This document shows positions 5,268 through 28,899 of a stretch of 64,000 bases of DNA, piece after piece. Made by a program: the position numbers and the translations under genes. The DNA comes from an uncultured Gammaproteobacteria bacterium. Lineage in GTDB: Bacteria > Patescibacteriota > Patescibacteriia > Magasanikbacterales > UBA922. The notes under the pieces are model-generated. The model was given only the letters and a program-made list of their open reading frames with translations. It was not told the origin of the DNA and ran no database searches. The stretch's first letter is position 1. Each line of letters begins with the position of its first letter. The stretch is taken from contig OZ246405.1 of assembly GCA_965231005.1 (NCBI GenBank), positions 39,204-103,203 of the forward strand. Reading direction: 5' to 3'.

Positions 5268-5462
5268 ATTTATAACGTAAATAAGATCTAAAGTACTACC
5301 ATTGTAACAGATGGGGTATAAGAGTCAAGGATTTCAAAAAGAAATAGCGAAATAAAGAAATAAAGAAATAAGGGGCTTTGGATAAATGCCGAACGGCTGT
5401 TGAAACATACAATCTTTTTACGTTAACCCCTTATTTCCTGTTTCTTTATTTCTTTTAACAAA

Positions 5463-5512
5463 AAAAGCCTTTATGGCTTTTTTAGCATTTATGGCTTTTA
5501 AGGCCTTTTTAA
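5463..5512. repeat. 9-bp periodic array AAAGCCTTT ATGGCTTTT TTAGCATTT ATGGCTTTT AAGGCCTTT
   Basis: Five tandem 9-mers with consensus A(A/T)GGC(C/T)TTT directly after the stop of the DUF4012 gene. Confidence 0.6.
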
Positions 5513-8055: not shown

Positions 8056-8099
8056 GTTCTTCGCTATTTATAGATATATTATACCATGAATCTGTAATA

Positions 8100-8290
8100 A
8101 ATAGCAGAAGAATTGGGTATAAACCGACTGCATTCAACACACCTCTCATTCTGTCATTGCGAGGAATGAAGCGAAAGCGTAATGACGAAGCAATCTAGTG
8201 GGAACTGCTAGAAAAATTCCAATGAGATTGCTTCGTCGCCCTACTGCCTATCGGCAAGTAGGGCTTCTCGCAATGACAGGAATCTTTTAA
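8100..8290. other. nested-palindrome structured element (possible cis-regulatory RNA or REP-like DNA element) in the leader of the DUF4012 gene
   Basis: Perfect 13-bp inverted pairs CTGTCATTGCGAG/CTCGCAATGACAG and GACGAAGCAATCT/AGATTGCTTCGTC, plus an internal hairpin GCCCTACTTGCC-GATA-GGCAGTAGGGC. Locally GC-rich. Confidence 0.4.
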
Positions 8291-8322
8291 TAAAAAAACC
8301 TCCCCCTGCTAAAGGGGAGGTA
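8290..8322 (-). terminator. intrinsic terminator of the GT4 gene (CCTCCCC-TTTAGCA-GGGGGAGG stem then T7 on the minus strand)
   Basis: The reverse complement reads cctcccctttagcagggggaggttttttt. Confidence 0.55.
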
Positions 8323-8341
8323 GCCGAAGGCTGGAGGGGGT

Positions 8342-9466
8342 TTACTTTTTTACGAGAAACTCCGAATAAACATCCAACGTCTCCTCTGCCATCCTTTTCC
8401 ATGAATATCTTTTCAACTCTTCTACACCTTTTTGTTTTAGTTCAAAACGAATATCCTCGTCTACAAGCGCACGTTCAATTGCAGAAGCAAATTGTTCATG
8501 GTCTTCTGGATCAGCATACAGTGCAGCTTCACCTAAAATTTCTGGGAGGCATGTTCTGTTTGAAGAAACAACAGGAACGCCATGACTCATCGCTTCAAGC
8601 GGTGGCAATCCAAATCCTTCGTACAAACTTGGAAATGTATAAAGTGTTGCATGTTTATAAAGAGTTAACAATTCATCATCACTAACAAAATCCGTATAAA
8701 CAACATTGTTACATTGTTTTATTTCTTCACTTTTTAAAAGTTTTTCATAAAAATAATTTTTCTTTCCAACGAGCACAAGTTGATATTCATCTTCAAATGT
8801 TTTTTCAATAATTTTCCACGCATTTAACAAACCTTTTAAATTCTTGTGTGGAAACGCCACTCCAACATACAACACATACGGCTTGGCAATATTAAACTTT
8901 TTCAAAACAGAATTATTTGTATCTTGTGTCTTATGATTTAAGTAGGCTTCATATGTGACACTCATCTTATCAAGAGAAACATTAAGTGTTTTGTGCACAT
9001 CTTGTCTTGTAAACTCACTTGGCGTAAAAATATGTTTTGCTTTTTTTACTGCATGAGCAAGCACTACTTTGTATGCAATATATTTGAATGCATAACGAAA
9101 CCACCCAAGCGTGCTTGCTTCACGAGTTGGATAATGCATGAGCAACAAATCATGAACAGTGACAACAAATGGATCATTATAAAACAGAGGTACGTTCCAG
9201 TGTGGAAAATGCATCAAATCTATTTGTTCTTTTTTGAGAATGCGTAAAAATCTGAATTGTTCTTCCCATCCATACCAATGTATGTCTGCAAGAACTTTTC
9301 GAATCTTTGGATGTTCTGGGACAAGCTCCCAATTATCTTTTTTTAAAAATAAAACATACTCATCATCACCAGACAGTGTAATAAGATGATCAATGAGTTG
9401 TTGCGTATACCGACCCAATCCCCCACATTGAGGACCAAGCATTCGTGCGTCTATGCCGACTCTCAT
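8342..9466 (-). CDS. glycosyltransferase family 4
   Basis: EGFGLPPLEAMSHGVPVVSS motif of GT4/RfaB-like enzymes. Confidence 0.8.
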   Translation of the reverse strand: MRVGIDARMLGPQCGGLGRYTQQLIDHLITLSGDDEYVLFLKKDNWELVPEHPKIRKVLADIHWYGWEEQFRFLRILKKEQIDLMHFPHWNVPLFYNDPFVVTVHDLLLMHYPTREASTLGWFRYAFKYIAYKVVLAHAVKKAKHIFTPSEFTRQDVHKTLNVSLDKMSVTYEAYLNHKTQDTNNSVLKKFNIAKPYVLYVGVAFPHKNLKGLLNAWKIIEKTFEDEYQLVLVGKKNYFYEKLLKSEEIKQCNNVVYTDFVSDDELLTLYKHATLYTFPSLYEGFGLPPLEAMSHGVPVVSSNRTCLPEILGEAALYADPEDHEQFASAIERALVDEDIRFELKQKGVEELKRYSWKRMAEETLDVYSEFLVKK

Positions 9467-9533
9467 ACATTGCGTTAATGAATAGAGTCAGCATAGCACT
9501 TGATAGCAGACGAGTCAAAAGAGAATGTGTTGC

Positions 9534-10202
9534 TTATATGTATTCCAATCCATCTGTTTTCTGGCATATGTGATCAAAGACGTCTTCTGGAATGTTCTCA
9601 TATTTTTCAAGAGAAATCATTTTTTTTGCCTGTTGTATCCAAGCAGCGTCATAACTCATGGCATTTTCAATATCTCTTAATTCATTCTTTAATTTATCAA
9701 CAGCATCTTTTGAAAAAAATAGTCCCCAACATTCTTGCTTTGCAATGTCTGCATGCTTCAAAACTCTTTCGTGTACATCTTTTTCTATTATAAGTTCCTC
9801 AATATGATCTTCAGTATTGTCAATCAATTCTTGGTGCTCTGAAATTGCTGATTCTTTTTCAATAACCATTTTTGCCAGAATAAACTGCCTTTTTTCTTCT
9901 TCTGTTTTTGGTGAATAATAATTATCTAGTGCCTCTTCGTATGCAAGACCAGCATACTCAAGTAATTCTACATCTGATTCTCTAAGCATAAACAATTCAA
10001 TCTGATGAACTGATTCTGCAGAACCTTGGTGTGCCCACTGATGCAACATACCTCGAATTGTGTCGGTTGTAGTTGAGTTATTAGAGGTATGATTTTCTCG
10101 TATACTATCTGATTTTTCTGTAGAGAAAGAAGCTGGTGTGTCTTGGATGAGATCTTTTGTGAGAAAAGAATGTTGAGATGTGTATATAATATTTCCCCCC
10201 AT
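9534..10202 (-). CDS. hypothetical protein (acidic, helical) within the polysaccharide cluster
   Basis: 222-aa ORF with no motif recognised. Confidence 0.4.
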   Translation of the reverse strand: MGGNIIYTSQHSFLTKDLIQDTPASFSTEKSDSIRENHTSNNSTTTDTIRGMLHQWAHQGSAESVHQIELFMLRESDVELLEYAGLAYEEALDNYYSPKTEEEKRQFILAKMVIEKESAISEHQELIDNTEDHIEELIIEKDVHERVLKHADIAKQECWGLFFSKDAVDKLKNELRDIENAMSYDAAWIQQAKKMISLEKYENIPEDVFDHICQKTDGLEYI

Positions 10203-10314
10203 ATAATTATTGTTATGAATACTATATCTAACTTACCAAAGAGGAAAAAACATGCAAAAAAATAGCCGAAAAAGGGCCATTTTTATCACTTTTGTTTAAT
10301 TTTATATATAAAAC

Positions 10315-11442
10315 CTACTTCTGAGCCACATCAGTAAGCAAGGAGAAAAAATCGGCTGCAGCATTATTCCAATTAAACTTCTTTGCCTGATCCAAACCTT
10401 TTTCGATGTATGTTTGTCTTACCTCCTTATCTGATGCGAGCAATTCCATACCCTGAATGATCTCTGAAATATTATATGGATTCACCAAATACGCAGCTGG
10501 ACCAACGACTTCTGGAAGCGACGAAAGATGACTGGTAATAACTGGTGTGCCTGCAGCCATTGACTCAAGAACTGGAAAACCAAATCCTTCATACAAACTT
10601 GGAAATACAAATACACTTGCAAGTGAGTAAAGCGTTTGTTTTTCTTCCTCAGTAACAAAACCGACGTAACGAATCCCAGGAGCAACACATGCTCGACGAA
10701 TAATATGTTTGCACTTCCATCCTTTTGGTCCTGCAATAATAAGTTCATACCCTTTACTCCTGAGCGAGCTCTGCTCAAATGCTTGAATTGCACCCAACAT
10801 ATTTTTTCTTGGTTCAACTGTTCCTAAAAAGAGAATAAATTTTTCAGGAAGATTATATTTTTGAATGCACTGTGATTTGTCAGACGTATCAATATCTTGC
10901 ACTGACATACCTGGTTGAACAACTGAAATTTTTTCTGAATCAATGTCAAAATAATCAATAAGATCATGTTTTGTATGAGCACTCGGAACAATAATATGAT
11001 GTGCGTTTTGACATTGTTGTTTTGGTCTTACCATTTTGTGCCACAGCAATCTTTTTTTAGAAAAAAATTCTGGAAAAAGTTCGAATGACAAATCATGAAT
11101 AGTAAGGACATGTTTTGTATTGGAAGAAAATGATGTGAAATGTAAATTTGGAGAAAAAAATAAATCAAATTCCTTTTTCATTATATTGTTGATCCGAGGT
11201 CTTTGAAACAATACCATTGAAGAATGTAGGATCTTGTTTGGAAATCGTGATGCAACAATATGAACATTGTCTTGCAAAAAATTTGGAATATATTCAGATA
11301 CATTTTTAAACGAATTATAGAAAAGATAATAATTATTTTTTTTATCAAGCGCAAACAAGGACTGTAATAGTCCCTGTGTATATTGTCCCACACCTGTTTT
11401 ATGTGGTGTTGCAAGACATCGTATGTCAATCCCGATGTTCAT
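10315..11442 (-). CDS. glycosyltransferase family 4
   Basis: PSLYEGFGFPVLESMAAGTPVITS motif. Confidence 0.8.
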   Translation of the reverse strand: MNIGIDIRCLATPHKTGVGQYTQGLLQSLFALDKKNNYYLFYNSFKNVSEYIPNFLQDNVHIVASRFPNKILHSSMVLFQRPRINNIMKKEFDLFFSPNLHFTSFSSNTKHVLTIHDLSFELFPEFFSKKRLLWHKMVRPKQQCQNAHHIIVPSAHTKHDLIDYFDIDSEKISVVQPGMSVQDIDTSDKSQCIQKYNLPEKFILFLGTVEPRKNMLGAIQAFEQSSLRSKGYELIIAGPKGWKCKHIIRRACVAPGIRYVGFVTEEEKQTLYSLASVFVFPSLYEGFGFPVLESMAAGTPVITSHLSSLPEVVGPAAYLVNPYNISEIIQGMELLASDKEVRQTYIEKGLDQAKKFNWNNAAADFFSLLTDVAQK

Positions 11443-11611
11443 ATTATAGGACTTATCTTAAAGGTGATTTTGTATCAGTTTTAGATCAGTTTTGAGTGAA
11501 AAAAACGAAGATTGAGGAATGATACCCGGTGGTATCACGACGAAATATGAGTTTTTTGCAGCCAACACTGGCTGAAAATGAGTCATGAATCACTTTTAAG
11601 ATAAGTTCTAT

Positions 11612-12742
11612 CTATCTATAAGAAATATCTAGTGCGCATTGGTTTAATCCTTGTTTAAACTCTTCATATCTGTGGTGAACATATTGTTGCATACGTGTAC
11701 GAAATGCATGTTCATCATATCGCGAAGCCCACTGACGAATTTCATGAGGATTCCATGCCTGAGCATCAAAATTAAGAAGAGCATCTAAAAGTGCTTCCCA
11801 TGTTTGTTCATAAAACAATATTCCTGTCTTCCCTGGAATAACTGTTTCTGTTGCTCCGCCAACACCATACGCAATAACAGGACGACCACAGGCCATGGAC
11901 TCAATTGGTGTAATGCCAAAATCTTCAACTTGTGGATGGATAAATGCTTTTGCACGACTGAGCAATTTTACTTTTCCTTTTTCATCAACACGCCCAAGAA
12001 ATTGAATATTGCTTTTCGCTTTCTTTTTTAAGCGCTCAAGTTCTGGTCCATCACCAAAAATTTTTAAATTCCAGCCAAGTCGATTGAACACATGCACTGC
12101 AAGATCAAATCGTTTATATGGAACAAGGCGTCCACCAGTAACAAAATAATTTCCAATGTTTGGTGCTATTGAAAAATCAGAAATAGTAATTGGAGGATAA
12201 ACAATATCACTTTCACGACGATAATACTTTTGGATCCGTTGACGTACGGTTTGGGAATTTGCAATAAAGTGGTCAACTCTGTCTGTGCTCATTTTATCCC
12301 ACAGCCGCAATTTATAAATAAGACGTGGCAAAAATGCTTTAATTGCTCTGTTGTATTTTAAGTCTGCAATATATTTGTGTGTGTCAGTCCACAGATATCG
12401 TGTTGGGGTGTGGCAGTATGAAATATGCAATGTTTCCGGACGAGTAAGGACCCCTTTTGCAAATGCACTTGTAGAAGAAACCACTATGTCAAACTCATCT
12501 AAATTATGACGCTCTGTTGCCAGAGGCATAAGTGGTAAATACCATTGGTAGCGTGTTTTTCCAAATGGAAGTCGTCGAATAAATGATTGACGAACTTTTT
12601 TTTCAGAAAATTGAGGAAGTTTTTTCTTGTCATGAAAAAGGACAAAAATTGGCGCATCTGGCCAAATTTCTTGAAACGCTTGAAGCACACGCTCAGCTCC
12701 TCCATCTTGTGACAAATAGTCATGTACAAGTGCAACTTTCAT
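11612..12742 (-). CDS. glycosyltransferase family 4
   Basis: EDFGITPIESMACGRPVIAYGVGG motif. Confidence 0.8.
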   Translation of the reverse strand: MKVALVHDYLSQDGGAERVLQAFQEIWPDAPIFVLFHDKKKLPQFSEKKVRQSFIRRLPFGKTRYQWYLPLMPLATERHNLDEFDIVVSSTSAFAKGVLTRPETLHISYCHTPTRYLWTDTHKYIADLKYNRAIKAFLPRLIYKLRLWDKMSTDRVDHFIANSQTVRQRIQKYYRRESDIVYPPITISDFSIAPNIGNYFVTGGRLVPYKRFDLAVHVFNRLGWNLKIFGDGPELERLKKKAKSNIQFLGRVDEKGKVKLLSRAKAFIHPQVEDFGITPIESMACGRPVIAYGVGGATETVIPGKTGILFYEQTWEALLDALLNFDAQAWNPHEIRQWASRYDEHAFRTRMQQYVHHRYEEFKQGLNQCALDISYR

Positions 12743-12744
12743 AT

Positions 12745-14163
12745 TTACTCAACTTTCCTTTTTTTCAACAGGATGAAGGGGGTTTTTAAAAAAATAATAA
12801 TATCGAGTGCAAGATTCCACCGTTCAATATATAAAATATCTAATTTCATTTCTTCTTCAAATGATAAATCACTTCGGCCAGAAATTTGTGCAAGTCCAGT
12901 AATACCAGGCTTAAGTGTAAATACATGCGGATACTTATCTTTGTATTGATTTACCTCTCGTGGCTGATGAGGACGAGGACCGACAACACTCATTGATCCA
13001 CCTAGAACATTGAAAAATTGTGGCAATTCATCAATGCTCCAGCGCCGCATAAACCGACCAAACCCTGTAACGCGAGGATCATTTCCTATTTTATAAATAG
13101 GGCCCTTGCGTGTATTTGATTTTTTAATAAGTTCTTGTTCTTTTTTTTCTGCTTCAGCTCCAGCTTTTCCAAATTGTTTTCCAGTAGAGAATTTTTTAAA
13201 CATGGAACGAAACTTGAGTGTATAAAATATTCTCCCACGAAGTCCAACTCGTTCATTTTTGTAAATAATTGGAAATCCAGTTTCAAACAAAATAATAATA
13301 CTGCTGAGTACAGTAATTGGGCTTGTAATAACAATGACAAACATACTTAAGACAATATCGAGCAAGCGTTTAATAACTCTTCCCCACGCGCCAAGTGATG
13401 TGCGTCGAAGTTCTACAATTGGCACACCACCAACAGGGTGAATGATCATGTTGCTTGAATATGTTGCAAATACATCTGCTGAATATTTAAATGTAACATG
13501 AAGCCGATCGCATGCTTCAATTGCCCGTAAAGCCTCTTTTTCATGTGCACGAGGATTTGCGAAGATCATTTCATCGATCTTGGTTTTTTTCATTTTGTTT
13601 TCAGCGTCTTCATTAAATGTTTTATATGTTCCAATGACTTTGAATCCGAGCTCTTTTCTTTTTGAAAGTGTTTGTTCAATTGTTTTTGCAACACTGTCAG
13701 ATCCAATAATAATAACGCGACGAAGACCAATACCCATGCGATACATAAGTCCTTTTAATCCTCGAATAAGAATTCTTCCAAAACTTACATACACAATAGA
13801 AAGAACCCAACCAACAGCAACAAGAAAACGAGAGTCAAACAATTCTTGTGTAAACATGATGTAGACTGCAACAGCACCAAGCCCTGCTGAGCATGCAAAT
13901 AAAATGCGTGTAAGATCATGACTCAATTTTCTGTTTGGATCAGGACGGTAGAGTCCAATGAGGGCAAACAACACAAGCCAGCTTAGTGCTACCCACGATG
14001 CAATCGATGTAAAATCAAAAAGACTCAAATCAAATAACACTGGTTTGAGTGAGACTGCCCAATCTGAAAAACGAAGTGCATATGCTGTAACTGCAGCTGC
14101 CACGAGCATGAAATAATCAACTGGAACCTGCAAAATCATCAATAAAATTTCAGAACGTTTCAT
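12745..14163 (-). CDS. polyprenyl-phosphate sugar phosphotransferase (WbaP/bacterial sugar transferase family; priming enzyme)
   Basis: N-terminal TM helices; C-terminal [18 protein letters not shown] ... [21 protein letters not shown] signature. Confidence 0.8.
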
Positions 14164-14232
14164 AGAGAATCAATAATATAATTATGTTTATTTTACGCAA
14201 AAAAATGACTTTGGTCAACACAGTAACCCACC

Positions 14233-14261
14233 TTGACAAAAGGTATAAACTATGGTATATT
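14233..14261 (+). promoter_or_regulatory. sigma70-like promoter of rnpB (TTGACA-17nt-TATATT)
   Basis: Consensus -35 hexamer at 14233-14238, 17-nt spacer, -10 at 14256-14261. Confidence 0.55.
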
Positions 14262-14267
14262 CTTATG

Positions 14268-14672
14268 GTCTTGTTCATTACAGATGATCGATTTGGCCTC
14301 TGGCCAGATAGGAAAGTCCGAACTCTTCTCAATTTTATTGAGGTCGTGGAAGTGGGTAACACCCACCCACTGCATTGTGAAATGTATGTGAGGGACAGTG
14401 CCGCAGAGACAATACTAGTCCCGTCGCTCGTGAGCGACAGGACAAAAGGTGAAAAGTGTATAGAGGTTTTTGATCTCGAGTCAAAAGTTACTATACTCTA
14501 TCCTGTGGTGACACAGGTTAGTGGTAAACCCTTCCTAGAGAAAGAGCAGCGTTTTCCGTTTACGGGATTCGAAAAGTTAGCTCGTTACAGGTGTTTGGTA
14601 ACAAACATCGCAGAGAAATGATCATCACCCGCAAGGGTACAAAATTCGGCTTACGTAGTGGACAAGACAACA
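14268..14672 (+). ncRNA. rnpB: RNase P RNA (bacterial type A)
   Basis: P4 strands AGGAAAGTCCGAAC and ACAAAATTCGGCTTA show compensatory CCGAA/TTCGG changes relative to the E. coli GUCCGGGC/CCCGGCUUA. GGTAACACCCACC and CAGTGCCGCAGAGACAA match conserved RNase P blocks. P1 pairing GTCTTGTTCATTAC with GTAGTGGACAAGAC. Confidence 0.75.
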
Positions 14673-14675
14673 AAA

Positions 14676-14700
14676 AAACACCATGATTGGTGTTTTTTTG
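14676..14700 (+). terminator. intrinsic terminator of rnpB (AACACCA-tgat-TGGTGTT then T7)
   Basis: Hairpin and U-run read directly. Confidence 0.55.
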
Positions 14701-14781
14701 ATACCCTCCGAACTTCACAGTTGCGTAGCCCGAAGGGCACACATTTGTTTGGTTCGGAGTTTGTTCTCCTAGTTCTTGCAG

Positions 14782-15399
14782 CTAGGCTGCGGTGGGCTCG
14801 GACGCGACGTGGTCCTTGCAGACCGGGCAGGCTTCGTCGGTGTAGCCGTTGCTACTGCAGTGATTGCATCGGTCAAAGGTTCCTCCTCTGCTGTGCTTCT
14901 CCAGACCGCTACCACCACAGGGCTCGCACTTCTTTTTGCGGATGTTCTTGCATGCCATGCAATAAAGCTCGGCACTCACATGCTCTGCGCTGATGGTCCA
15001 GCCGTTTTTCTCGAGCCTTGCGACCACGGAGTGACGCGTCGAACACGTGTTCTTGTCGAGCATGCCATGATGACCGCCGTACGAGTAGCGCTGCATCTTG
15101 ATGGTTGCCATGTCCCAGGCAGACCTTTCAATATAGACCCTTGCCTCGAAGAAGATGTGGTACCGATCGCCATCACTGCCGGCATAGCCGAGGACGCACG
15201 AAAAGTTCCGCAGTTCTCCGTCTGGAGCACCATCGAAGTCAGGCCGACCCCACCAGGCCGCAAGACCGAAGTCTGCGTCGGTGTAGATCCTGCCGTGAAT
15301 CGCAGCGAACTCCTTGACTGCTGCGATCGCGATCGGGATCATTTGCAGACAAAAAGCCAGTCCTTGTGTGACTTTCAGGTCTTTTCCTTTCTTTGCCAT
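14782..15399 (-). CDS. hypothetical protein with C-terminal multi-CxxC zinc-ribbon region; strongly GC-atypical (~57-60% GC)
   Basis: The minus frame gives a non-repetitive protein with RBS gggggaaacaATG (start MAKKGKD). The opposite-strand ORF 14776-15456 is Ala/Val/Arg-rich low complexity typical of an antisense frame in GC-rich DNA. Confidence 0.45.
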   Translation of the reverse strand: MAKKGKDLKVTQGLAFCLQMIPIAIAAVKEFAAIHGRIYTDADFGLAAWWGRPDFDGAPDGELRNFSCVLGYAGSDGDRYHIFFEARVYIERSAWDMATIKMQRYSYGGHHGMLDKNTCSTRHSVVARLEKNGWTISAEHVSAELYCMACKNIRKKKCEPCGGSGLEKHSRGGTFDRCNHCSSNGYTDEACPVCKDHVASEPTAA

Positions 15400-15595
15400 T
15401 GTTTCCCCCATCTGAAGGGAACTCCTGGACAACATGTCCACGAGGCTGCCATCTGAGCAGCGCCCTACTTCTCACATTTGAGAGTTAAAGCGCTACTGAG
15501 ATGGATACTTGATCCTAGTATATATTGAAACATTTGTCAAGTATAGACCAAAAAACAGCCCAAAGGCTGTTTTTTTGTAAAAAAATTAAATTTTT

Positions 15596-16390
15596 TTAAT
15601 CCAAAAAATAATCCTTTTCAAGCTGCTGCACTACAGAGCCTGGTATAGTTTTTTCTAGTGAAAGTGGACTATCTCTGTGATAAAACACCTCCACAAAAAT
15701 TTCTAAAGCATCAGAGGTTCTTTCAATCTTCTCTTCACCCTCAACAGCCTCCCCCATTTCAAATAACTGCTCACTAGACTCACTTCTATCTGGATCTGTT
15801 GCTCGAGTTTGAAGTAATTCTGCAAAGGCAGAACGGACAGATTGCAAAAACTCTGGAGTGCGCAAATCATCTACTAATTTTTCTTTTCTTTCTGATGCAT
15901 CTTTTTTCATCTTATCAACATATTCTTTTGGCATTGCCTGAAAAGCAACTGCATATTCAGATTTTGGCTCACTTGAGCTAACCGCATCTATGGCAGCCTC
16001 CATTCCATGCTTGTCACGCATATGAAAAGCACCCAATTCATTACCAACACCATGACTGTCAGTTGTAATACCATGCATCCCCATAACAGCCATGATTGTA
16101 TTCTCTTCTGCGCGAGTTAAATCTCTACCTGGCGTGTTTGCGATCGCTTGTAAAAGTTCAGCAGATCTTTCACTGCTAAATTCTGGCTTGTCAGACCCCT
16201 GCTCCCAGGACAATGGATTTTCAACCAGCCACTGAACATGTCCTAAAACTCTGCCTGCTTCTCCAAAAGCTGCGGCCTCGTCTGGTTCTAAATTTTTAGG
16301 CATGAAAGGACCAGCTTTTAGAACTTTTTCATATATTCCCTCACTTGTCTCTTCCTGAGGAGGATGATGCCTGTCTCTTTTACTATCCAT
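15596..16390 (-). CDS. hypothetical protein (acidic, 264 aa) in the GC-atypical island
   Basis: ORF only. Confidence 0.4.
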   Translation of the reverse strand: MDSKRDRHHPPQEETSEGIYEKVLKAGPFMPKNLEPDEAAAFGEAGRVLGHVQWLVENPLSWEQGSDKPEFSSERSAELLQAIANTPGRDLTRAEENTIMAVMGMHGITTDSHGVGNELGAFHMRDKHGMEAAIDAVSSSEPKSEYAVAFQAMPKEYVDKMKKDASERKEKLVDDLRTPEFLQSVRSAFAELLQTRATDPDRSESSEQLFEMGEAVEGEEKIERTSDALEIFVEVFYHRDSPLSLEKTIPGSVVQQLEKDYFLD

Positions 16391-16548
16391 ATTAAAATTT
16401 TGTTATTATTAAAATGTAGTGTAAAGCTTTTTCAAATAAAAGACAAATTTGAATTTAAGATCAAAAAAACTCGTCTTCGCCATAGGCTACGCCGAGTAAA
16501 CTCTTTCATTCGATAAATCCTCTTGTAGAGTTTACTTGGCGGAGTCCT

Positions 16549-16612
16549 GCCTGCCGGTCCGATGCGCAAGCGATACGGACTCCGTACCTTGCGTCGGAGC
16601 AGGCAGGCCGAA
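16549..16612. repeat. split or degenerate copy of the GC palindrome: CCTGCCTGCCGG + 41-bp imperfect palindrome + GCAGGCAGG
   Basis: Halves of CCTGCCTGCCGGCAGGCAGG separated by tccgatgcgcaagcgatacggactccgtaccttgcgtcgga. Confidence 0.45.
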
Positions 16613-16744
16613 GGACGTAGACAAGTTCTTTTGATCTATCCCGAGCCGCACAGTTGCAGAGCTTTCGTCCGGAGGGACGATCGTTGCAGGGTAGTACGAG
16701 TCGGGTGACAGGCATATATGACAAGAACATTTGAGGAGGGTATT

Positions 16745-17149
16745 CTAGGACAGCCTAGGCTTGAGTCCATTTGTAACAGCGATCCGAAACAGATCTGCAC
16801 GAGTACTAACACCCAGACGTCTACTGATCTCCCTTGAATGTGATTCGACTGTCCGGTGGCTCACACCAAGAATTTCTCCTACTTCGCCACACGTATGACC
16901 ACTAATGATCCATGACAAAACTTCGAGCTGTCGTTTTGTCAGAGACTTGAGAGGACCTCTAGCAACAATCTGTGACATAGGACCTGAAGCAGGCTGAACT
17001 ACTCTGCTGGCGAACCTGAGTGACACACCACCAGATCTATTTCTTGAAACCTCAATTGAGAGAATAACCTTCTGACCTTCTTCCGGAATATCCAGCTCAA
17101 AGGAGTCAGCAGCGACTTTCACAGAAATTGTCTTTGTTTTAGGAGCCAT
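16745..17149 (-). CDS. LuxR/GerE-family HTH transcriptional regulator
   Basis: C-terminal LTKRQLEVLSWIISGHTCGEVGEILGVSHRTVESHSREISRRLGV is a LuxR-type HTH; GC ~50%. Confidence 0.7.
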   Translation of the reverse strand: MAPKTKTISVKVAADSFELDIPEEGQKVILSIEVSRNRSGGVSLRFASRVVQPASGPMSQIVARGPLKSLTKRQLEVLSWIISGHTCGEVGEILGVSHRTVESHSREISRRLGVSTRADLFRIAVTNGLKPRLS

Positions 17150-17205
17150 GCTACCTCCTTGTTCTTGTGTAGCCTGTTTATATCAGCAAACGCTTAGTTT
17201 GTCAA

Positions 17206-17232
17206 TTCAAAAACCCGGCTTTTCACCGGGTC
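17206..17232 (-). terminator. intrinsic terminator (CCCGGTG-aaaa-GCCGGG then T5 on the minus strand)
   Basis: The reverse complement reads cccggtgaaaagccgggttttt. Confidence 0.5.
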
Positions 17233-17239
17233 TTTTCTG

Positions 17240-17328
17240 TGCTCAGGAGAGGACTTGAACCTCCACAGGAAAAAATTCCCACAAGGCCCTCAACCTTGCG
17301 CGCCTGCCTGCCGGCAGGCAGGTCTACC
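17240..17328 (-). pseudogene. 3' portion of a degenerate tRNA-Leu(GAG) paralog (D-loop GGTAGAC to acceptor end), interrupted by the 20-bp GC palindrome
   Basis: Minus strand reads GGTAGAC-[CCTGCCTGCCGGCAGGCAGG]-CGCGC AAGG TTGAGGG CCTTG ... GGAGGTTCAAGTCCTCTCC TGAGCA. The T-arm and anticodon loop are identical to the intact tRNA-Leu at 18199-18285. Confidence 0.5.
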
Positions 17329-17574
17329 AAATCTGTTTAATAAAGTTATTTTTATCCATTCCTTCCCTGATCCAGACTTTAGATATTTCTCCCGTTTTCT
17401 AGCTTCAATTCTTGTCGAATATTTTTCGTAATATATCAAAAGAAAAGGTCTGTAAAAACGTGTCACTCTTTCTTTTCCACGCTCATGTTCTAAAACCCGT
17501 CGCTCAAGGTCATTCGTTAGACCAACATAAATATAATTCTTTTGAAGACTTTTTAATACATACACATGGTACAT
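17290..17574 (-). CDS. GIY-YIG nuclease family protein
   Basis: YVYVLKS...YIYVGLTNDLERRVLEH GIY-YIG motif. The last ~8 codons (PACRQAGAQG) are encoded by the GC palindrome and tRNA fragment. Confidence 0.7.
   Translation of the reverse strand: MYHVYVLKSLQKNYIYVGLTNDLERRVLEHERGKERVTRFYRPFLLIYYEKYSTRIEARKREKYLKSGSGKEWIKITLLNRFGRPACRQAGAQG
17303..17322. repeat. perfect 20-bp palindrome CCTGCCTGCCGGCAGGCAGG (copy 1)
   Basis: Exact self-complementary 20-mer. Identical copies at 18312-18331 and 52500-52519. Confidence 0.8.
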
Positions 17575-17627
17575 ATTCCACTCCTTAATTCACTGTGCGG
17601 AGTTAAGGACCAGATTGCAACCTTAAT

Positions 17628-18197
17628 CTACTTTTCAACCTGATAACCATGCAGGAGAGGACGATCCGGTCGAGGGATGAGCCATTTAATATTTGTCTTT
17701 TGTAGCCTTATCGCTCGTATTTCTTCCAAAGAACTCCATGCAGTAAGCAATTGGTCTGATGCTCCTTCCACGTATAATCCAAAGATGTATGAATGATCTG
17801 CAAGAGCTCCAAGCCTAGTAACCATTGCAGTAGAAATCTGATCCGAGCAAGTGTCTTTCGTTTTTCCACCAAGACTCACAAGTCCACTACCAGACTCTTC
17901 TCCAGAATAACTAAGTCCAGTTATATTTAAATCAAAATCTCTACAGAGTATTGTAAAAAATTCCGAATGTGAAGAAAGTGATTTGTTCAGTGCTATCCCA
18001 GCCCTAAGAGTAGTCCCGATACTATCACCAGAAGCGTCTTGTATCTCTTTCCTCATCTCCTCGATCGCTTCTTTATCTTGATCTGCTATTGACTGAGGTT
18101 CAACTGAGAAAATGGCACATCCAGACAAAAAGAAAATAACTAAAATAAGGCCGCAAAGAGCAGTAACAGATGAAATTTTCTTGGCTTGTAATAACAT
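17628..18197 (-). CDS. putative lipoprotein
   Basis: Signal peptide with lipobox LSGCAI; 189 aa; start codon directly abuts the tRNA-Leu 3' end. Confidence 0.5.
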   Translation of the reverse strand: MLLQAKKISSVTALCGLILVIFFLSGCAIFSVEPQSIADQDKEAIEEMRKEIQDASGDSIGTTLRAGIALNKSLSSHSEFFTILCRDFDLNITGLSYSGEESGSGLVSLGGKTKDTCSDQISTAMVTRLGALADHSYIFGLYVEGASDQLLTAWSSLEEIRAIRLQKTNIKWLIPRPDRPLLHGYQVEK

Positions 18198-18198
18198 G

Positions 18199-18285
18199 TG
18201 CGCAGGAGAGGACTTGAACCTCCACCCTGTATAACCAGGACCAGGCCCTCAACCTGGCGCGTCTACCGATTCCGCCACCTGCGCG
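18199..18285 (-). tRNA. tRNA-Leu (anticodon GAG), class II with long variable arm
   Basis: The minus strand reads GCGCAGG TG GCGG AATCGGTAGA CGCG CCAGG TTGAGGG CCTGG TCCTGGTTATACAGGGT GGAGG TTCAAGT CCTCT CCTGCGC A. All four stems pair. No encoded CCA. Confidence 0.85.
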
Positions 18286-18306
18286 TGTTTTGAATATTTT
18301 TTATTT

Positions 18307-18384
18307 TTAAATGTTGCGCGCCTGCCTGCCGGCAGGCAGGTCTACCAATGGAGTTTACCTGCCGGAGCTTTAGCGTAGGCAGGC
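18307..18384 (-). pseudogene. 5' portion of the degenerate tRNA-Leu paralog (acceptor GCTCAGG through the D-arm), containing two GC-palindrome-type insertions
   Basis: The minus strand reads GCTCAGG TG GC[CTGCCTACGCTAAAGCTCCGGCAGG]TAAACTCCATT GGTAGAC[CCTGCCTGCCGGCAGGCAGG]CGCGC. Acceptor GCTCAGG is complementary to CCTGAGC at 17241-17247. Confidence 0.45.
18312..18331. repeat. perfect 20-bp palindrome CCTGCCTGCCGGCAGGCAGG (copy 2); part of the 31-bp direct repeat GGTAGAC-palindrome-CGCGC shared with 17298-17328
   Basis: Exact match. Confidence 0.8.
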
Positions 18385-18389
18385 CACCT

Positions 18390-18496
18390 GAGCATATCTA
18401 GAAATTAAAAATTGGAAATCAGGGGTTAGGGAATACTGACAGTAATATCTTATTTAGTTCCCTAATTTCTAGTTTCTAGTTTCCAGTTTCCAATTT
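18390..18496. repeat. inverted pair of TAGTTTCC-family 8-mer arrays (GAAATTAAAAATTGGAAATCAGGGGTTAGGGAA ... TTCCCTAATTTC TAGTTTC TAGTTTCC AGTTTCC AATTTC) around a 24-bp core
   Basis: Read directly; left arm is the reverse complement orientation of the right arm. Confidence 0.6.
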
Positions 18497-18502
18497 CAAT
18501 TT

Positions 18503-19282
18503 TTAAAATCTTCTTCCCTTTCCAACAATCATCTTAATTCTACTCTTTGCCAATTTTATTGTAATCTTTGTTTCTTTTGATTCCTTTCCATCGGCCTGCA
18601 CAACAAAGGGTTTTGTGCTACTTACAATCATTTCTTCAAATGGGAACACACTTGGATCTTCGTATACTGGACGAATAATTTTCTTTCCAAGTACTGGACG
18701 TAAAAACGCTTCTAACTTTCCATCTTGCGGATGAACTGTTACACGATCCTGCTTTCTCATTCCTCTCCATTCAAATGGCTGTAAGTTACACACAACCAAT
18801 TCAATTTTTGCACCTTGTCGTGCCGATACTTTAAACCGTTCATCGTACTGCACAGTCACATCACTTGCAGGAATATGCAGACGAGAAATAAAATATCTAT
18901 TATTGAACCAACCTACATCTAACTTTACTTTTCTTCTTCGTGAAAGAACATCACATGCTTCTACACCAACTGGAATACCAAGCACATCTGCGATTGAGTT
19001 ATCCGATCCTATAGGGAGAAAACCAAAGAGCGTATCGCAAATTGCTGCGCGAGAAAGAACATGACCAAAGGTCTCATCATTTCCAACAATCACAATAGCG
19101 GTCGCGCCACGTTTTATTTCTTCCTCTACAATTGCATGTGCATTTGTATAGTTTTGAAGTCGGATTATTTTACCAGCAATACCAAAGTCTGTCAACCGTG
19201 TCTCCATGGTCTTAATGGTACTTGCAAACTTTTTTTGCTTTAAAAAGTTGTCGTATAAATATACGTACATAATAGATAACAA
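18503..19282 (-). CDS. diacylglycerol kinase catalytic-domain (YegS/DagK-like) lipid kinase
   Basis: IVIVGNDETFGHV and LPIGSDNSIADVLGIP motifs of the DAGK_cat / NAD-kinase-like fold. Confidence 0.6.
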   Translation of the reverse strand: MLSIMYVYLYDNFLKQKKFASTIKTMETRLTDFGIAGKIIRLQNYTNAHAIVEEEIKRGATAIVIVGNDETFGHVLSRAAICDTLFGFLPIGSDNSIADVLGIPVGVEACDVLSRRRKVKLDVGWFNNRYFISRLHIPASDVTVQYDERFKVSARQGAKIELVVCNLQPFEWRGMRKQDRVTVHPQDGKLEAFLRPVLGKKIIRPVYEDPSVFPFEEMIVSSTKPFVVQADGKESKETKITIKLAKSRIKMIVGKGRRF

Positions 19283-19299
19283 ATTGAATCTGAGAAAAA

Positions 19300-19755
19300 T
19301 TACTCAGACAATGCTTCCTCTGTTTTTATACGACTTTTTGATGTTCCCTTTTTTCTCGTTACACCACCCTTTACCATCTCAATTCCTTTCATAGTAATTT
19401 TTCCATGAACAAGTGCACCAGCTTCAACAGAAAGAACTTTACATGCAATATCTCCAGCAATACGCGCTGTTGCCTTTAAATCAATTCTATCACTCACTTT
19501 TACATTTCCAGAAATTTCACCAGCAACCACTGCTTCACCTGCACGAACATTTGCAGAAATTTTTGCTCCTTCTTGGACAGTAAGCAAGCGGCTTGTTTTT
19601 ACATTTCCAGCAACACTTCCTCTGACAAGGATATCACCTTCAGAAGAAAAGTCTCCTTCTACATGGACAGAAGGGCCGACAACAGTCTCTACTGTATCTG
19701 GTTCTTTGTTTGTTTCTGGATCTTCATAAATTGGCTCTGGAGTTTTTTGAAACAT
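19300..19755 (-). CDS. bactofilin family cytoskeletal protein
   Basis: Repetitive beta-helix pattern (GDILVRGSVAGNVKT..., AVVAGEISGNVKVSDRIDL..., GDIACKVLSVEAGALVHGKI) typical of DUF583/bactofilin. Confidence 0.7.
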   Translation of the reverse strand: MFQKTPEPIYEDPETNKEPDTVETVVGPSVHVEGDFSSEGDILVRGSVAGNVKTSRLLTVQEGAKISANVRAGEAVVAGEISGNVKVSDRIDLKATARIAGDIACKVLSVEAGALVHGKITMKGIEMVKGGVTRKKGTSKSRIKTEEALSE

Positions 19756-19882
19756 ATATACTTGTTATAAGTAGGATAAAGATTGTCTATAGGTTTGTAT
19801 ATAATAGCGCATGTCTCAAAAAAATTCAAATCCTTGAATACAATATGTGGTCAAAGAAAAACAGGCTATTATAGCCTGCTCT

Positions 19883-22834
19883 TTATGATGGTTGTTCTTG
19901 TTCTCGAAGCTCTTCCCAGCGCGTTTGAATGTCAACCATAATTTGCTCAGACTCATCCAACCCCTGCCCGCTCGATAACTTCTCCATAATAGCCAGCTGC
20001 TTTCTACTTGCTTCTGCAAACAAAGATTCCATGGTATGCATAAATGCAGGATCATGATCCATAGATTGATTATGTGCAACTTCGTGTGTCATAGTGCGCC
20101 AAGCTTCGTAAAAACCGTGATTGATAGTCTCGCTGTTTAACCCAATTGCTTTCCGCGCAATGTTCAAACCTTTTGATCCTGTGCCATTGTAAATAAACAT
20201 CTCATTTTGAATTGCAACTCCTGTTGACGCATGAACATATACTTGTAACAATGCAAGTCTTGCAAGCTGTTCCTTTGTTGGTGCTAGTTCAATTTCAAAA
20301 TCATTAATGTTTGCATCTTCTGGTGTAAGTCTATCTGCGATCCTTTTAATTTCATTACTGATTATTGCAACTGCACTCGCCTTTTTACTATCCTTTAATT
20401 TTGCAGAGACCGTATCAATTTCTGCACGACTGTGCTCTTCAATAATTTCTGCAAGATTTTTTCCTGTCAAATACCCTGCACCAACTTCTGCTGCTCCATA
20501 AAAATCACTGGACTCTCTCCATAAAAGATATTTATCAATCCGGCTTAACCCTTCTTTTTCATTTTCTGTACTTTCGCCTGCTTCAATTTCTTTTGTGATT
20601 GTTTTAAGCTTGTCTACTACTTCTGTTAGTTCAGGAACTTTTTCAGCCACACGCGAAATCTTTTCTTGGACTTTATCTGATGCTTCGACCACTTTGTGTT
20701 CTCCGCGTAGTCGTGGATCACGAAGATCTTGCTCTACTGGAACGTCTTCTAGTGATCGCTTTTCTTTTGTAACAACCTTTTTATCTGTTTTTTCTTTATT
20801 CTTTGCTCCTACAGCAGGTGTTTCTTTTTGAGTCAATCCTTCTACTGGCGCAGAAAGCAAATCTCTAAGTACTTTTGCTGATTGTTCGTCCAAATCAAAC
20901 TCAAAAAATAATCCGCCTTCTTGCTTAGACTCAGTAGTCCGTGAAAGCAACATATCCTCTCCTACAACATTATCTTTCTCAACACCAAATGTTGCAACAT
21001 ACTCACCTTGAGAAAGAAACGCACGATCATCTCTAAAATAAGAATTTGAAAGTCCTTCTTTAGCTACACCTCGTAGGAACGAAAGAGCCTTCTGATCATC
21101 TGTCTTTACACGAACCAATGGATGGGATAACAATTCTTTTGAAATCTTTACATCAGAATAAATTCGAAAGGAGCCTGGCCGATCTGGTCGTTCTATACAA
21201 TTTCCTTTTATACTCGCAAGCCTACTTACTATCATTTTTAATAATGCTTCTGAAGAATCAACATCATCAAATTCTTCAAAAGAAACTTCTACACCACTTT
21301 CTTTTGCTGCAGCTTCTCTTGCAATTTTTGCATTATATCTCTCTGGCTTTGCATTTACTGCCACATCAAGTGAATCGAGTTTTGAACTTGCCTCTGGCAT
21401 ACCAATTTTAGCAAAATAAGGAGGACACAACACATATCCCTGTTCTCTCAGTTCACGTGCGTTGTTCTGATTGACTGAATTATCCATTGCTAAATATTTT
21501 TTTCCTCCAAAATGCTCGTCAAATTGTGTTGGTGAATAATCTTTAATACGATACGAAGCTCCAAGACGACGAACCATTTCTTCAATGACAACAAAACAAC
21601 CAGGACGCCCTGAACTGGAAAACATACCACCATCTGAAAGTGTGCTCCACAAATGTTCAGATGCTTTTAATTGAGCAAGTAAATTATCTTTATCCATTGA
21701 ATTCACCAGCTCACGAGTATATTTTTCAAGTTCATAAGCCTTCACTGGCGGTCGATCAACATTCATTGCATATTTCACATTATTTAACTGCAATGTCATA
21801 AATTCAGGACCAACCCAAAAATCTTCTTCTGTTTCACCTTTTTTTTCATAACTCATCACTTGTCCATTCAAAAAGAGTCGACCTCGTTCTGTTTTACCAA
21901 GTGCATGGAGTGGAAGCCATTTAATTGCGCCATGTTTATTCTCAAAATCAGGATCTTGCAAAAAAGGATTCTCTTTTGAAACACCAATTGACTTAAGCTG
22001 ATCCATTATTGCAAAAATTTTAGGATCAGAAGTATCAATCACATATGCATTTGATCCTCTAGATTCTGTTTGTTGCAAATCTGCCAATAACCAGTCATGT
22101 TGCACATCTTTCATCGGTGACTGGCCTTTTCTTGCTAAGCGCTCTCTCATGTCAGCATTCACATCTTCTGCTCTATTTAAACTATAATCAACCTTCCATC
22201 CTTCACCATGAATTTCAAACGTTTCTACATCAAAATCACGCAATAACCGTATCGCTGCTTGCTTTAATCCAATCCCATTTCCACCTGCAGTATTTCTATC
22301 ATCAGGTTTTTCCGAATGTGGACTCAGCACACCTGTAGGATCGTTAAATTCCCAATTTCCTCTAATAATATACCGCCGCTTTCCTGGGCTAATTTCTTCA
22401 CTAACAATAGATACACCATTTAACGTACCAGGATCTTCTGGATTGTGATCAACAAAATTCTGAACTAATTCTCGAGAAAGCCATGCTGCATTGTATTGAT
22501 CCTTTGATTTATCTAAAAATTTATCTGTTGTAACAGGATTTGCATCTTTTCCATATTCACTTTCATAAAACCAGCGAATCATCTTTTGATCTGTTACAAA
22601 TCCTGATGGACCAGTCTTTTCTAGCTCTCTAGCAGGCACATCTGGGACATTAGCCGAAGCTGGCTCAGTCTGGACAGGCCTGTCAACTTGTTTTTCCCTT
22701 CTTTCCCTAGATGGAGGCGTTTGTACTTCTGGAGGTGTCGACGCTGACTTATCCCCTTTCCCTATACCAAAAAAACGCTTCCAACCTGGTTTGGAGTGTG
22801 AAATATCTAGATTAGGTCTCCTATGAACCCCCAT
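19883..22834 (-). CDS. large hypothetical protein (983 aa) with an N-proximal GHKL/Bergerat-fold ATPase-like region and a C-terminal HExxH motif
   Basis: N-box-like ELVQNFVDH and G1-box-like GGNGIGLKQAAIRLL; C-terminal MTHEVAHNQSMDHD; proline-rich basic N-terminus. Confidence 0.45.
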   Translation of the reverse strand: MGVHRRPNLDISHSKPGWKRFFGIGKGDKSASTPPEVQTPPSRERREKQVDRPVQTEPASANVPDVPARELEKTGPSGFVTDQKMIRWFYESEYGKDANPVTTDKFLDKSKDQYNAAWLSRELVQNFVDHNPEDPGTLNGVSIVSEEISPGKRRYIIRGNWEFNDPTGVLSPHSEKPDDRNTAGGNGIGLKQAAIRLLRDFDVETFEIHGEGWKVDYSLNRAEDVNADMRERLARKGQSPMKDVQHDWLLADLQQTESRGSNAYVIDTSDPKIFAIMDQLKSIGVSKENPFLQDPDFENKHGAIKWLPLHALGKTERGRLFLNGQVMSYEKKGETEEDFWVGPEFMTLQLNNVKYAMNVDRPPVKAYELEKYTRELVNSMDKDNLLAQLKASEHLWSTLSDGGMFSSSGRPGCFVVIEEMVRRLGASYRIKDYSPTQFDEHFGGKKYLAMDNSVNQNNARELREQGYVLCPPYFAKIGMPEASSKLDSLDVAVNAKPERYNAKIAREAAAKESGVEVSFEEFDDVDSSEALLKMIVSRLASIKGNCIERPDRPGSFRIYSDVKISKELLSHPLVRVKTDDQKALSFLRGVAKEGLSNSYFRDDRAFLSQGEYVATFGVEKDNVVGEDMLLSRTTESKQEGGLFFEFDLDEQSAKVLRDLLSAPVEGLTQKETPAVGAKNKEKTDKKVVTKEKRSLEDVPVEQDLRDPRLRGEHKVVEASDKVQEKISRVAEKVPELTEVVDKLKTITKEIEAGESTENEKEGLSRIDKYLLWRESSDFYGAAEVGAGYLTGKNLAEIIEEHSRAEIDTVSAKLKDSKKASAVAIISNEIKRIADRLTPEDANINDFEIELAPTKEQLARLALLQVYVHASTGVAIQNEMFIYNGTGSKGLNIARKAIGLNSETINHGFYEAWRTMTHEVAHNQSMDHDPAFMHTMESLFAEASRKQLAIMEKLSSGQGLDESEQIMVDIQTRWEELREQEQPS

Positions 22835-28758: not shown

Positions 28759-28821
28759 AAGTCAAAATCTCCCTAAAATTGATCTTTCTTTAGTGGACAA
28801 TCCACTGTGGGTATACAATGA

Positions 28822-28850: not shown

Positions 28851-28899
28851 AATTAACTTCCTAAACCTAGGAAGCCAAACGAACAACAAGGGGGTAACC

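Follow-up and report, generated by a model that had tools for sequence, protein, structure and literature searches.

A probable lineage-specific gene islet between tRNA-Leu and the RNase P RNA gene in a Magasanikbacterales genome

A 64,000-nucleotide stretch of contig OZ246405.1 (GenBank assembly GCA_965231005.1), referred to here at its full length as the window, comes from an uncultured bacterium that GTDB places in the patescibacterial order Magasanikbacterales; beside its RNase P RNA gene it carries two genes designated ORF1 and ORF2 and a gene for a LuxR-type helix-turn-helix (HTH) protein. It is proposed that window 14702-17239, which holds these three genes, is a lineage-specific mosaic gene islet of 2,538 bp, bounded on one side by the ancestral tRNA-Leu(GAG) 3' end and on the other by the terminator that belongs to the convergent RNase P RNA gene, an assignment that we regard as probable. 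A first reading of the letters alone (the original prediction) had placed a horizontally acquired island at 14700-17200, near to the span mapped here, and its view of the segment as foreign is supported by an empty site in the closest relative compared and by the absence of every islet gene from 46 sister loci. The anomaly in guanine plus cytosine (GC) content that drew attention to the segment is real and far beyond chance, and it is borne mainly by one gene, ORF1.

The islet and its site in relatives

The left edge of the islet is given by the RNase P terminator, which stops at 14700, and the right edge by the ancestral tRNA-Leu, which ends at 17240. ORF1, ORF2 and the LuxR-type gene all lie on the minus strand; together with a frame antisense to ORF1 they are the only open reading frames of at least 100 amino acids (aa) in 14702-17239. 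The islet and its native boundaries are laid out as follows (window coordinates).

14272-14668, plus strand: RNase P RNA gene, bacterial class A (Rfam RF00010, 151.5 bits, E 8e-47, full length, 45% GC)
14670-14700, unstranded: RNase P bidirectional terminator hairpin (A-run, stem, T-run; terminator scan), the last native sequence before the islet
14706-14759, minus strand: long hairpin CTCCGAAC...GTTCGGAG just 3' of the ORF1 stop codon, within the probably foreign GC-rich segment (sequence reading and fold)
14782-15399, minus strand: ORF1, 205 aa, GC-rich orphan gene
15512-15540, minus strand: promoter-like site for ORF1, TTGACA-17-TAGGAT, in AT-rich DNA
15547-15578, unstranded: bidirectional terminator hairpin between ORF2 and ORF1, in host style (A-run, stem, T-run)
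15596-16390, minus strand: ORF2, 264 aa, orphan
16458-16637, unstranded: GC-rich, structured imperfect palindrome of 180 nt in the spacer between the LuxR-type gene and ORF2
16745-17149, minus strand: LuxR/FixJ-type HTH gene, 134 aa (Pfam GerE)
17177-17205, minus strand: promoter-like site for the LuxR-type gene, TTGACA-17-TATAAA (read from the sequence)
17213-17231, unstranded: islet-borne bidirectional terminator hairpin beside the tRNA 3' end, marking the islet's right edge
17240-17339, minus strand: 3' two-thirds of the ancestral tRNA-Leu(GAG) (tRNA-Leu #2), native right boundary of the islet

The RNase P RNA gene, preceded by a promoter-like TTGACA-17-TATATT at 14233-14261, is the native left boundary, and the rise in GC at 14.2-14.7 kb is this gene and lies outside any island. 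An open reading frame at 14184-14621 overlaps it and was set aside as spurious. At the other end, the island had been described as adjoining a tRNA-Leu; the intact tRNA-Leu of the window (18198-18284) is not adjacent, but the islet does abut the 3' end, at 17240, of a disrupted ancestral copy. The ancestral gene is taken to end at 17240 because it is the split copy and not the intact one that matches the tRNA-Leu of the closest relative (acceptor GCTCAGG, anticodon stem CAAGG, T arm); the intact tRNA-Leu(GAG) is a different allele with a GCGCAGG acceptor and a CCAGG anticodon stem.

Species-representative genomes were scanned with the flanking sugar transferase, which yielded 46 sister loci, each considered over +/-10 kb and nearly all titled Magasanikbacteria or Patescibacteria. 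The order bactofilin, DAGK-like kinase, tRNA-Leu(GAG), RNase P RNA, sugar transferase, glycosyltransferase is found in 17 of the 46. The closest relative compared is L002, with 72-80% amino-acid identity in the flanking genes; its tRNA-Leu ends at 9521 and its RNase P RNA starts at 9554, leaving a gap of about 32 nt that holds the terminator only, so that the hairpin equivalent to the one at 14670-14700 directly abuts the tRNA-Leu 3' end. In the window, 3.5 kb separates these two landmarks. Neither ORF1, ORF2, the LuxR-type gene nor a putative lipoprotein gene situated beyond the right edge was detected in the 46 loci, and this comparison of presence and absence, which the original prediction had suggested, leaves the islet without a counterpart in L002 or any other sister locus.

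Different relatives carry unrelated cargo at the tRNA-Leu/RNase P junction, which marks it as a hot spot of recurrent insertion. The gap is shorter than about 350 bp in 11 of 18 relatives, and the rest hold unrelated cargo, including the following.

L004, 6807-9301: 2.5 kb with an Eco57I/N6-methylase and a partner gene, 27% GC in a 35% GC genome
L018, 5678-9511: 3.8 kb with RNHCP and two radical-SAM/SPASM genes, 51% GC in a 45% GC genome
L021: ArsR, a thioredoxin-like protein and an ArsP permease
L020 and L044: membrane proteins without family assignment

The partner gene of the L004 methylase has no family match and presumably encodes a nuclease. Between the same flanks the RNase P RNA gene itself occurs inverted, on the minus strand in L002, L004, L018 and L021 and on the plus strand in L003, L005 and L010 (the sister RNase P RNA genes score 104-192 bits in Rfam), and these opposite orientations imply in-place inversions of an essential RNA gene.

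Base composition and mode of arrival

Composition was referred to 36 long host genes (GC 35.8 +/- 2.1%; GC at third codon positions, GC3, 23.4 +/- 3.9%). The whole window has 36.98% GC, its 600-bp segments average 36.9% (standard deviation 3.8%), and the peak among them, 57.5%, belongs to the segment that begins at 14751; values above 45% GC are confined to three stretches (1-850, 14251-17400 and 28751-30450). The islet genes compare as follows.

ORF1: GC 56.6%, GC3 68.4%; z scores 9.9 (GC), 11.6 (GC3) and -11.9 (synonymous codon likelihood)
LuxR-type gene: GC 46.7%, GC3 37%; z scores 5.1 (GC), 3.5 (GC3) and -6.9 (synonymous codon likelihood)
ORF2: GC 41.5%, GC3 28.7%; z scores 2.7 (GC), 1.4 (GC3) and -2.0 (synonymous codon likelihood)

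A GC-atypical segment does exist, with ORF1 extreme and the LuxR-type gene moderate, but it is narrower than had been claimed: by sliding-window GC and codon usage these two genes are outliers, and ORF2 is nearly host-like in composition and no clear outlier. Of the individual estimates, that for the LuxR-type gene (about 45-50% GC) agrees with the measurement and that for ORF1 (about 57-60%) lies slightly above it; the same 45-50% was too high for ORF2, and the background and flanks, put at about 33%, measure 37.0% for the window and 34-39% for the flanking genes.

Other GC-rich places in the window deserve mention in their own right. Small patches at 28751-30450 and 41686-41934 (45-52% GC, GC3 0.49-0.64) hold short open reading frames without Pfam match, several of them membrane-like, and may be further foreign mini-inserts like the islet. 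The stretch 1-850 at the window edge (43-49% GC) lacks a convincing open reading frame and any Rfam match, and next to it comes a 76-aa fragment (774-1004) that resembles the N terminus of a nicotinamide mononucleotide transporter; this stretch could be a truncated feature or an unrecognised RNA.

Start signals also differ along the islet. A Shine-Dalgarno core of at least 4 nt precedes just one of the 36 host genes, the usual host start being AT-rich and ending in TATG. A perfect AAGGAGG Shine-Dalgarno motif stands before the LuxR-type gene at 17160-17154, ORF2 has a host-like context (AT-rich, TATG, without a Shine-Dalgarno motif), and ORF1 has neither a Shine-Dalgarno motif nor the host-type TATG context. 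Each gene has a promoter-like site of its own, that of ORF2 being weak and ending 7 nt upstream of the start codon and that of ORF1 being separated from its gene by a 100-nt leader, and hairpins stand between most of the genes; the terminator after ORF2 shares its design with the native terminators, and the 354-nt spacer between the LuxR-type gene and ORF2 houses the 180-nt palindromic element. Because GC3 runs 37%, 29% and 68% along the islet, the start signals differ, and the promoter-like sites and terminators are separate, we infer that the islet arose through two or more acquisitions and not as a single module. ORF1 would be the most recent arrival, from an unsampled donor of about 55-60% GC, and the LuxR-type gene would come from a bacterium that, unlike the host, uses Shine-Dalgarno motifs. 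For ORF2 we infer either an old gene or one from a donor of similar composition, possibly another bacterium of the candidate phyla radiation. As a separate observation, the type of start signal, Shine-Dalgarno or TATG, may serve as a marker of foreign genes in this genome.

Genomic islands are reported to be frequent in Patescibacteria and to take up to 13% of genome length (PMC12455944). Like genomic islands at tRNA genes in general, those of Patescibacteria among them, the islet follows a tRNA 3' end, has an atypical composition, is absent from relatives, and carries orphan or accessory genes at a place of variable cargo. It differs from them in its size of only 2.5 kb, in having no integrase, flanking tRNA-end repeat or mobility genes, and in its heterogeneity, which probably reflects several small insertions rather than a single element. 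The islet is of a kind already known, a small, integrase-less and orphan-filled example.

No integrase or recombinase is encoded in 14702-17239 according to the open reading frame list and to Pfam, PHROG and NCBIfam, no repeat links 14.67-14.80 kb with 17.15-17.30 kb, and there is no attachment (att) repeat of the tRNA 3' end; the tRNA-derived repeats of the region (D1, D4 and D6) bracket 17.3-18.35 kb and not the islet. Two further direct repeats considered as att sites, D3 (14692/16625, 71%) and D5 (the terminators at 14670/15547, 74%), were rejected as low-complexity, terminator-style matches. The islet is in this respect not the classic tRNA-adjacent acquired island of the original prediction. 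Because neither integrase nor att site is present, illegitimate or short-homology insertion is the most economical route: the incoming DNA would have entered without a site-specific integrase, more likely through repair of this kind. The landing locus would be one that has been repeatedly broken and rearranged, its neighbouring tRNA-Leu being occupied and split by a GIY-YIG/palindrome element; that it is prone to recombination is plain, since the ancestral tRNA is split, palindromes lie inside the tRNA, and the RNase P RNA is inverted among relatives.

Of the other explanations, the one that survives best, although we consider it unlikely, is that the islet is the remnant of a single tRNA-Leu-targeting integrative element (a prophage, an integrative and conjugative element or an integrative mobilizable element) that has lost its integrase and most of its genes. 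The position directly after a tRNA 3' end, the small HTH regulator and the common strand of the three genes would all suit such a remnant, and the HTH protein matches PHROG sigma-factor and regulator families, through the HTH only. However, a tRNA 3'-end repeat on the far side is lacking together with the integrase, no islet gene has phage or plasmid similarity (that of the LuxR-type gene being confined to the HTH), and the spread in GC3 (68%, 29% and 37%) and in start signals argues against a single source.

Still less probable is a coherent three-gene regulatory or defence module gained in a single acquisition, an idea akin to the uncharacterised regulatory or accessory module proposed originally. 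The genes are indeed adjacent and on the same strand, one of them encodes a regulator, and the same spot holds restriction-modification cargo of defence type in a relative. Against this stand the heterogeneous composition and the separate promoter-like sites and terminators already described, the lack of any PADLOC match beyond the HTH, and the fact that the trio is found nowhere else among 5.8 billion clusters; given the differing GC3 values, start signals and promoter-like sites, the module proposal is not borne out.

The three islet genes

The LuxR-type protein is the only islet product with a recognisable domain. Pfam GerE (PF00196) matches residues 68-124 with 54.1 bits against a cut-off of 23.5 (E 1.2e-14), in agreement with the identity originally given to it. 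Its HTH is that of GerE/LuxR-type and FixJ/NarL effector domains such as EL222, whose HTH is the best PDB match (3.9e-08), with 36-45% identity over HTH and linker to alphaproteobacterial and actinobacterial regulators. The protein is 36% identical to residues 193-307 of a 314-aa Azospirillum REC-X-HTH regulator and, via the HTH, 32-45% identical to plasmid-borne response regulators of Azospirillum, Sinorhizobium and Rhodococcus; the matches to QscR, RhlR, SdiA and LasR span the HTH only. In contrast to FixJ, NarL, EL222 and LuxR regulators, it carries its HTH without a receiver, light-oxygen-voltage or autoinducer-binding domain: there is no Response_reg match, residues 1-65 contain no Pfam domain and no autoinducer-binding domain, and these residues form an N-terminal extension without a recognised fold, which sets the protein apart from GerE/LuxR-type regulators. 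Taken alone, the N-terminal 64 residues weakly resemble the middle part of the Azospirillum REC-X-HTH regulator, along a run of 18 residues (E 0.007). A k-mer search of 5.8 billion clusters returned the protein itself only, and in PADLOC-DB 2.0 its HTH matches CARF-HTH models (E 2e-4), with no other match from the islet. Sequence-specific DNA binding by this protein is the one activity that can be assigned in the islet. We suggest, with low confidence, that it may be a sensor-less DNA-binding regulator, for which control of its own promoter and those of its neighbours would tentatively be the most likely role.

Pfam, PHROG, PADLOC and NCBIfam scans of the three islet proteins recognise the HTH alone, and scans of IMG/VR contigs found no relative of any of them. 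The earlier remark that none of the three could be given a function holds after family, structure and homology searches. Homology searching, for which BLASTP and HHpred had been suggested, was carried out by the searches reported here, and returned self matches only for ORF1 and ORF2.

ORF2 encodes an acidic protein of 264 aa that is predicted to be all-helical. It finds only itself in a word-indexed search of the 5.8 billion clusters and has no match in Pfam, PHROG, PADLOC (E <=0.001), NCBIfam or PDB sequences; its AlphaFold2 single-sequence model is unusable (predicted local distance difference test, pLDDT, 43.3).

ORF1 is the compositional extreme of the islet. Its database call is 217 aa, from an ATG at 15435, compared with 205 aa from 15399. 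The protein has a hydrophobic N-terminal helix (MAKKGKDLK followed by 16 hydrophobic residues), which looks like a signal or anchor, a middle part predicted to be beta-rich, and, towards the C terminus, four CxxC motifs at regular spacing (CMAC, CEPCGGSG, CNHCSSNG and CPVC). The motifs had been read as a zinc ribbon, and they are present as described, but the nearest family model, Pfam DnaJ_CXXCXGXG, is matched below threshold only (E 0.072, 13.8 bits against a cut-off of 32.7). The likeness to the DnaJ CXXCXGXG zinc finger consists in four CxxC motifs within about 50 residues at DnaJ-like spacing, one of which, CEPCGGSG, fits the consensus exactly; the differences are that three of the four repeats lack the GxG part, that there is no J domain, and that the remainder of ORF1 has no recognised relative.

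Apart from itself, nothing resembling ORF1 was returned by the word-indexed search of 5.8 billion clusters or by an exhaustive phmmer search of 1.84 billion representatives, and for ORF1 and ORF2 together no homologue was found among about 15 billion proteins. ORF1 has no match in tblastn against phage and plasmid collections, its DNA has none against plasmids by blastn, and it has no significant PDB sequence match and none in PHROG, NCBIfam or PADLOC (E <=0.001); its single-sequence AlphaFold2 model (pLDDT 45.6) is likewise unusable. ORF1 is nevertheless most likely a real protein gene, because its open frame is rare in shuffled sequence, its GC by codon position follows GC3 > GC1 > GC2, its CxxC motifs are regularly spaced, and the folding of its RNA is unremarkable. 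The open frame was equalled in 7 of 5000 shuffles of the GC-rich segment, and the order of codon-position values is typical of a gene from a high-GC genome. No family matches the antisense frame (plus strand, 14776-15456) or the other frames that overlap here, and the GC1/GC2/GC3 pattern led to their rejection as the coding frame. With low confidence, the ORF1 product may be an accessory protein that is stabilised by zinc or disulfides and possibly anchored in the membrane.

GC-rich patches in AT-rich genomes are often structured RNAs. That the segment at 14.7-15.5 kb is a structured non-coding RNA rather than a protein gene is very unlikely: it adjoins another GC-rich RNA gene, that of RNase P, has long open frames on both strands and no protein homologue, but no Rfam match at E 0.1 or better is found over 14.7-15.5 kb, its fold z scores of -1.9 and -2.1 compare with -8.6 for the nearby 180-nt element, and the significance of the open frame, the codon-position pattern and the four CxxC motifs all suit a protein.

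The integrity of the assembly was assessed from the 1,232,850-bp NCBI contig and two short-read ENA MEGAHIT contigs from different runs of project PRJEB17505, on which the three islet proteins also occur. L001 (ERR2281800, a 29-kb MEGAHIT contig) corresponds to window 4782-16919 with 100% identity over 12 kb, L048 (ERR2281801) corresponds to window 16274-22525, also with 100% identity, and together they cross every islet junction; this agreement makes a chimera, a concern raised at the outset, unlikely. Least likely of all explanations is that a 0.8-kb GC-rich piece of another organism in the metagenome was joined in by misassembly, as the extreme jump in composition, the metagenome source and the lack of anything similar in databases might suggest, since the same sequence stands in the 1.23-Mb contig and in the independent 29-kb contig, two breakpoints would be needed within 0.8 kb of DNA with host-style signals to either side, and the piece is flanked by an AT-rich promoter plus a terminator at one end and by the RNase P terminator at its other end.

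The GIY-YIG/palindrome element beside the islet

Beyond the right edge of the islet, the ancestral tRNA-Leu is interrupted by a second piece of DNA, with the following features.

17290-17574, minus strand: GIY-YIG nuclease gene, 94 aa, outside the islet (Pfam GIY-YIG, 3.2e-15)
17628-18197, minus strand: gene for a putative lipoprotein, 189 aa, LSGC lipobox, outside the islet; its start codon abuts the intact tRNA-Leu
18198-18284, minus strand: intact tRNA-Leu(GAG) (tRNA-Leu #1; ARAGORN, Rfam 54 bits)
18314-18393, minus strand: 5' fragment of the ancestral tRNA-Leu #2, with two palindromic insertions (20-nt palindrome at 18321-18340)

Neither ARAGORN nor Rfam calls the pieces of tRNA-Leu #2. 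In the 3' piece (17240-17339) a 20-nt palindrome at 17303-17322 sits in the D stem, and the same piece encodes the last 17 codons of the GIY-YIG gene and its stop, a TGA that falls in the anticodon loop of the broken tRNA. The two palindromic insertions of the ancestral gene lie in its D arm. The insert that splits the tRNA measures 1,018 bp and is flanked by a 44-nt direct repeat within the two pieces (17296-17339/18314-18357, 35 nt identical); this piece of about 1 kb, with the intact tRNA-Leu, the lipoprotein gene and the GIY-YIG gene, is a separate insertion from the islet. A group I intron was rejected as the interruption on the grounds of no Rfam intron match, the flanking 44-nt direct repeat and the complete tRNA inside (PMC13011429). 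The lipoprotein has no family match in Pfam, PHROG, PADLOC or NCBIfam and no relative in metagenome contigs, and the GIY-YIG gene carries an AAGGAG Shine-Dalgarno motif.

Relatives of the 94-aa GIY-YIG protein (35-67% identity) were found in 80 metagenomic loci (L050-L129). A tRNA gene lies within 300 bp of the relative in 50 of them, always on the same strand; in 37 of these 50 it is 1-93 bp downstream of the GIY-YIG frame, in two it is overlapped by that frame, and in 23 it is a tRNA-Leu. Of 42 testable loci, 22 have a partial copy of the tRNA's 5' part immediately before the start codon of the GIY-YIG gene. Fifteen of the 80 loci contain the 20-nt palindrome, CCTGCCTGCCGGCAGGCAGG, at 100% identity, usually 25-45 bp before the start codon, and six sister genomes have it too, in one case within the gap that separates tRNA-Leu from RNase P; the window positions listed for the unit are 17303-17322, 18321-18340 and 52500-52519. 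In L050, L052 and the window it is tRNA-Leu(GAG), through its D arm and anticodon loop, that supplies the final GIY-YIG codons and the TGA. From this arrangement, the GIY-YIG gene and palindrome look like a tRNA-inserting unit.

REP/RAYT palindrome systems offer one comparison for this neighbouring element, though not for the islet. The features that recall REP/RAYT and the phage endonuclease SegB, taken jointly, are the perfectly conserved 20-nt palindrome and the partial tRNA duplications that flank the element; it differs from both in that the GIY-YIG protein of the window is a 94-aa catalytic domain only and is known here from its sequence. The nearest precedent is the free-standing homing endonuclease SegB of the phage T4 tRNA cluster, and SegB-type GIY-YIG endonucleases share with the window a small GIY-YIG gene lying tight beside tRNA genes (PMC2330249). 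No description of the palindrome CCTGCCTGCCGGCAGGCAGG or of the GIY-YIG/palindrome/tRNA arrangement was found in the literature searched.

The tie between this element and the islet consists in their proximity and in one palindrome copy inside the islet. This is the split GC palindrome noticed originally, and it was found with its half-sites at 16546-16557 (CCTGCCTGCCGG) and 16599-16607 (GCAGGCAGG) on either side of a nested hairpin of 41 nt; for the 9-mer half-sites the chance expectation is 0.05 per strand. The copy at 16546-16607, with the 41-nt hairpin inserted at its centre, shows that the GIY-YIG/palindrome element has colonised the islet. The enclosing 180-nt element (16458-16637) has fold z scores of -8.6 on the minus and -6.5 on the plus strand and forms a three-way hairpin structure with 22-nt terminal inverted repeats; the inverted repeats I6 and I12 belong to this element. 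It has no Rfam match, and neither it nor the 41-nt insert has a counterpart in any sister or metagenomic locus compared. The contigs L001 and L048 both end within 300 bp of the 180-nt element, which may hint at a repeat or a population variant.

L050, L051 and L052 are orthologous Magasanikbacteria loci, and the islet is an independent addition, because L050 and L052 carry the GIY-YIG element without the islet. A bolder account, to which we give little credence, is that breaks made by the GIY-YIG/palindrome unit at tRNA-Leu(GAG) created the hot spot and that their repair trapped foreign, perhaps host-derived, DNA. The Patescibacteria are a phylum for which an episymbiotic lifestyle has been deduced, and on this nuclease-capture account the unameliorated 57% GC gene might come from the bacterium's own high-GC host or from a phage of that host.

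Several points weigh against the islet as proposed, or against its link to the nuclease. No donor and no homologue of ORF1 or ORF2 was found, so that horizontal origin rests on composition and on absence from relatives and not on phylogeny, and the closest relative compared, at only 72-80% protein identity, is too distant to date or order the insertions. ORF2 taken by itself could be an old or fast-evolving lineage-specific gene and not a transfer. The 1.23-Mb genome and the two ENA assemblies may go back to common reads or a common sample, and of the two contigs L001 alone covers ORF1. The part played by GIY-YIG-induced breaks is a conjecture, with the insert-bearing relatives L004, L018 and L021 having no GIY-YIG gene within +/-10 kb and the element-bearing loci L050 and L052 having no islet.

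As a lineage-specific addition, the islet is a well-documented small gene gain in a streamlined patescibacterial genome, with an insertion point that can be placed to the nucleotide against L002; its practical value is modest. ORF1 and ORF2 are candidates for structural and functional work on true orphans, and it would be worthwhile to follow the tRNA-Leu/RNase P junction, as a natural landing site, through population data. The GIY-YIG/palindrome/tRNA arrangement with its split ancestral tRNA-Leu is more unusual than the islet and the likeliest to repay study: if the nuclease-capture account were true, the insertion hot spot would be the work of a selfish nuclease that targets tRNA genes, and would open a route of gene flow from host to symbiont in an ultra-small genome. 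The islet itself shows that even genomes of 1.2 Mb take up and keep compositionally alien genes without integrases.

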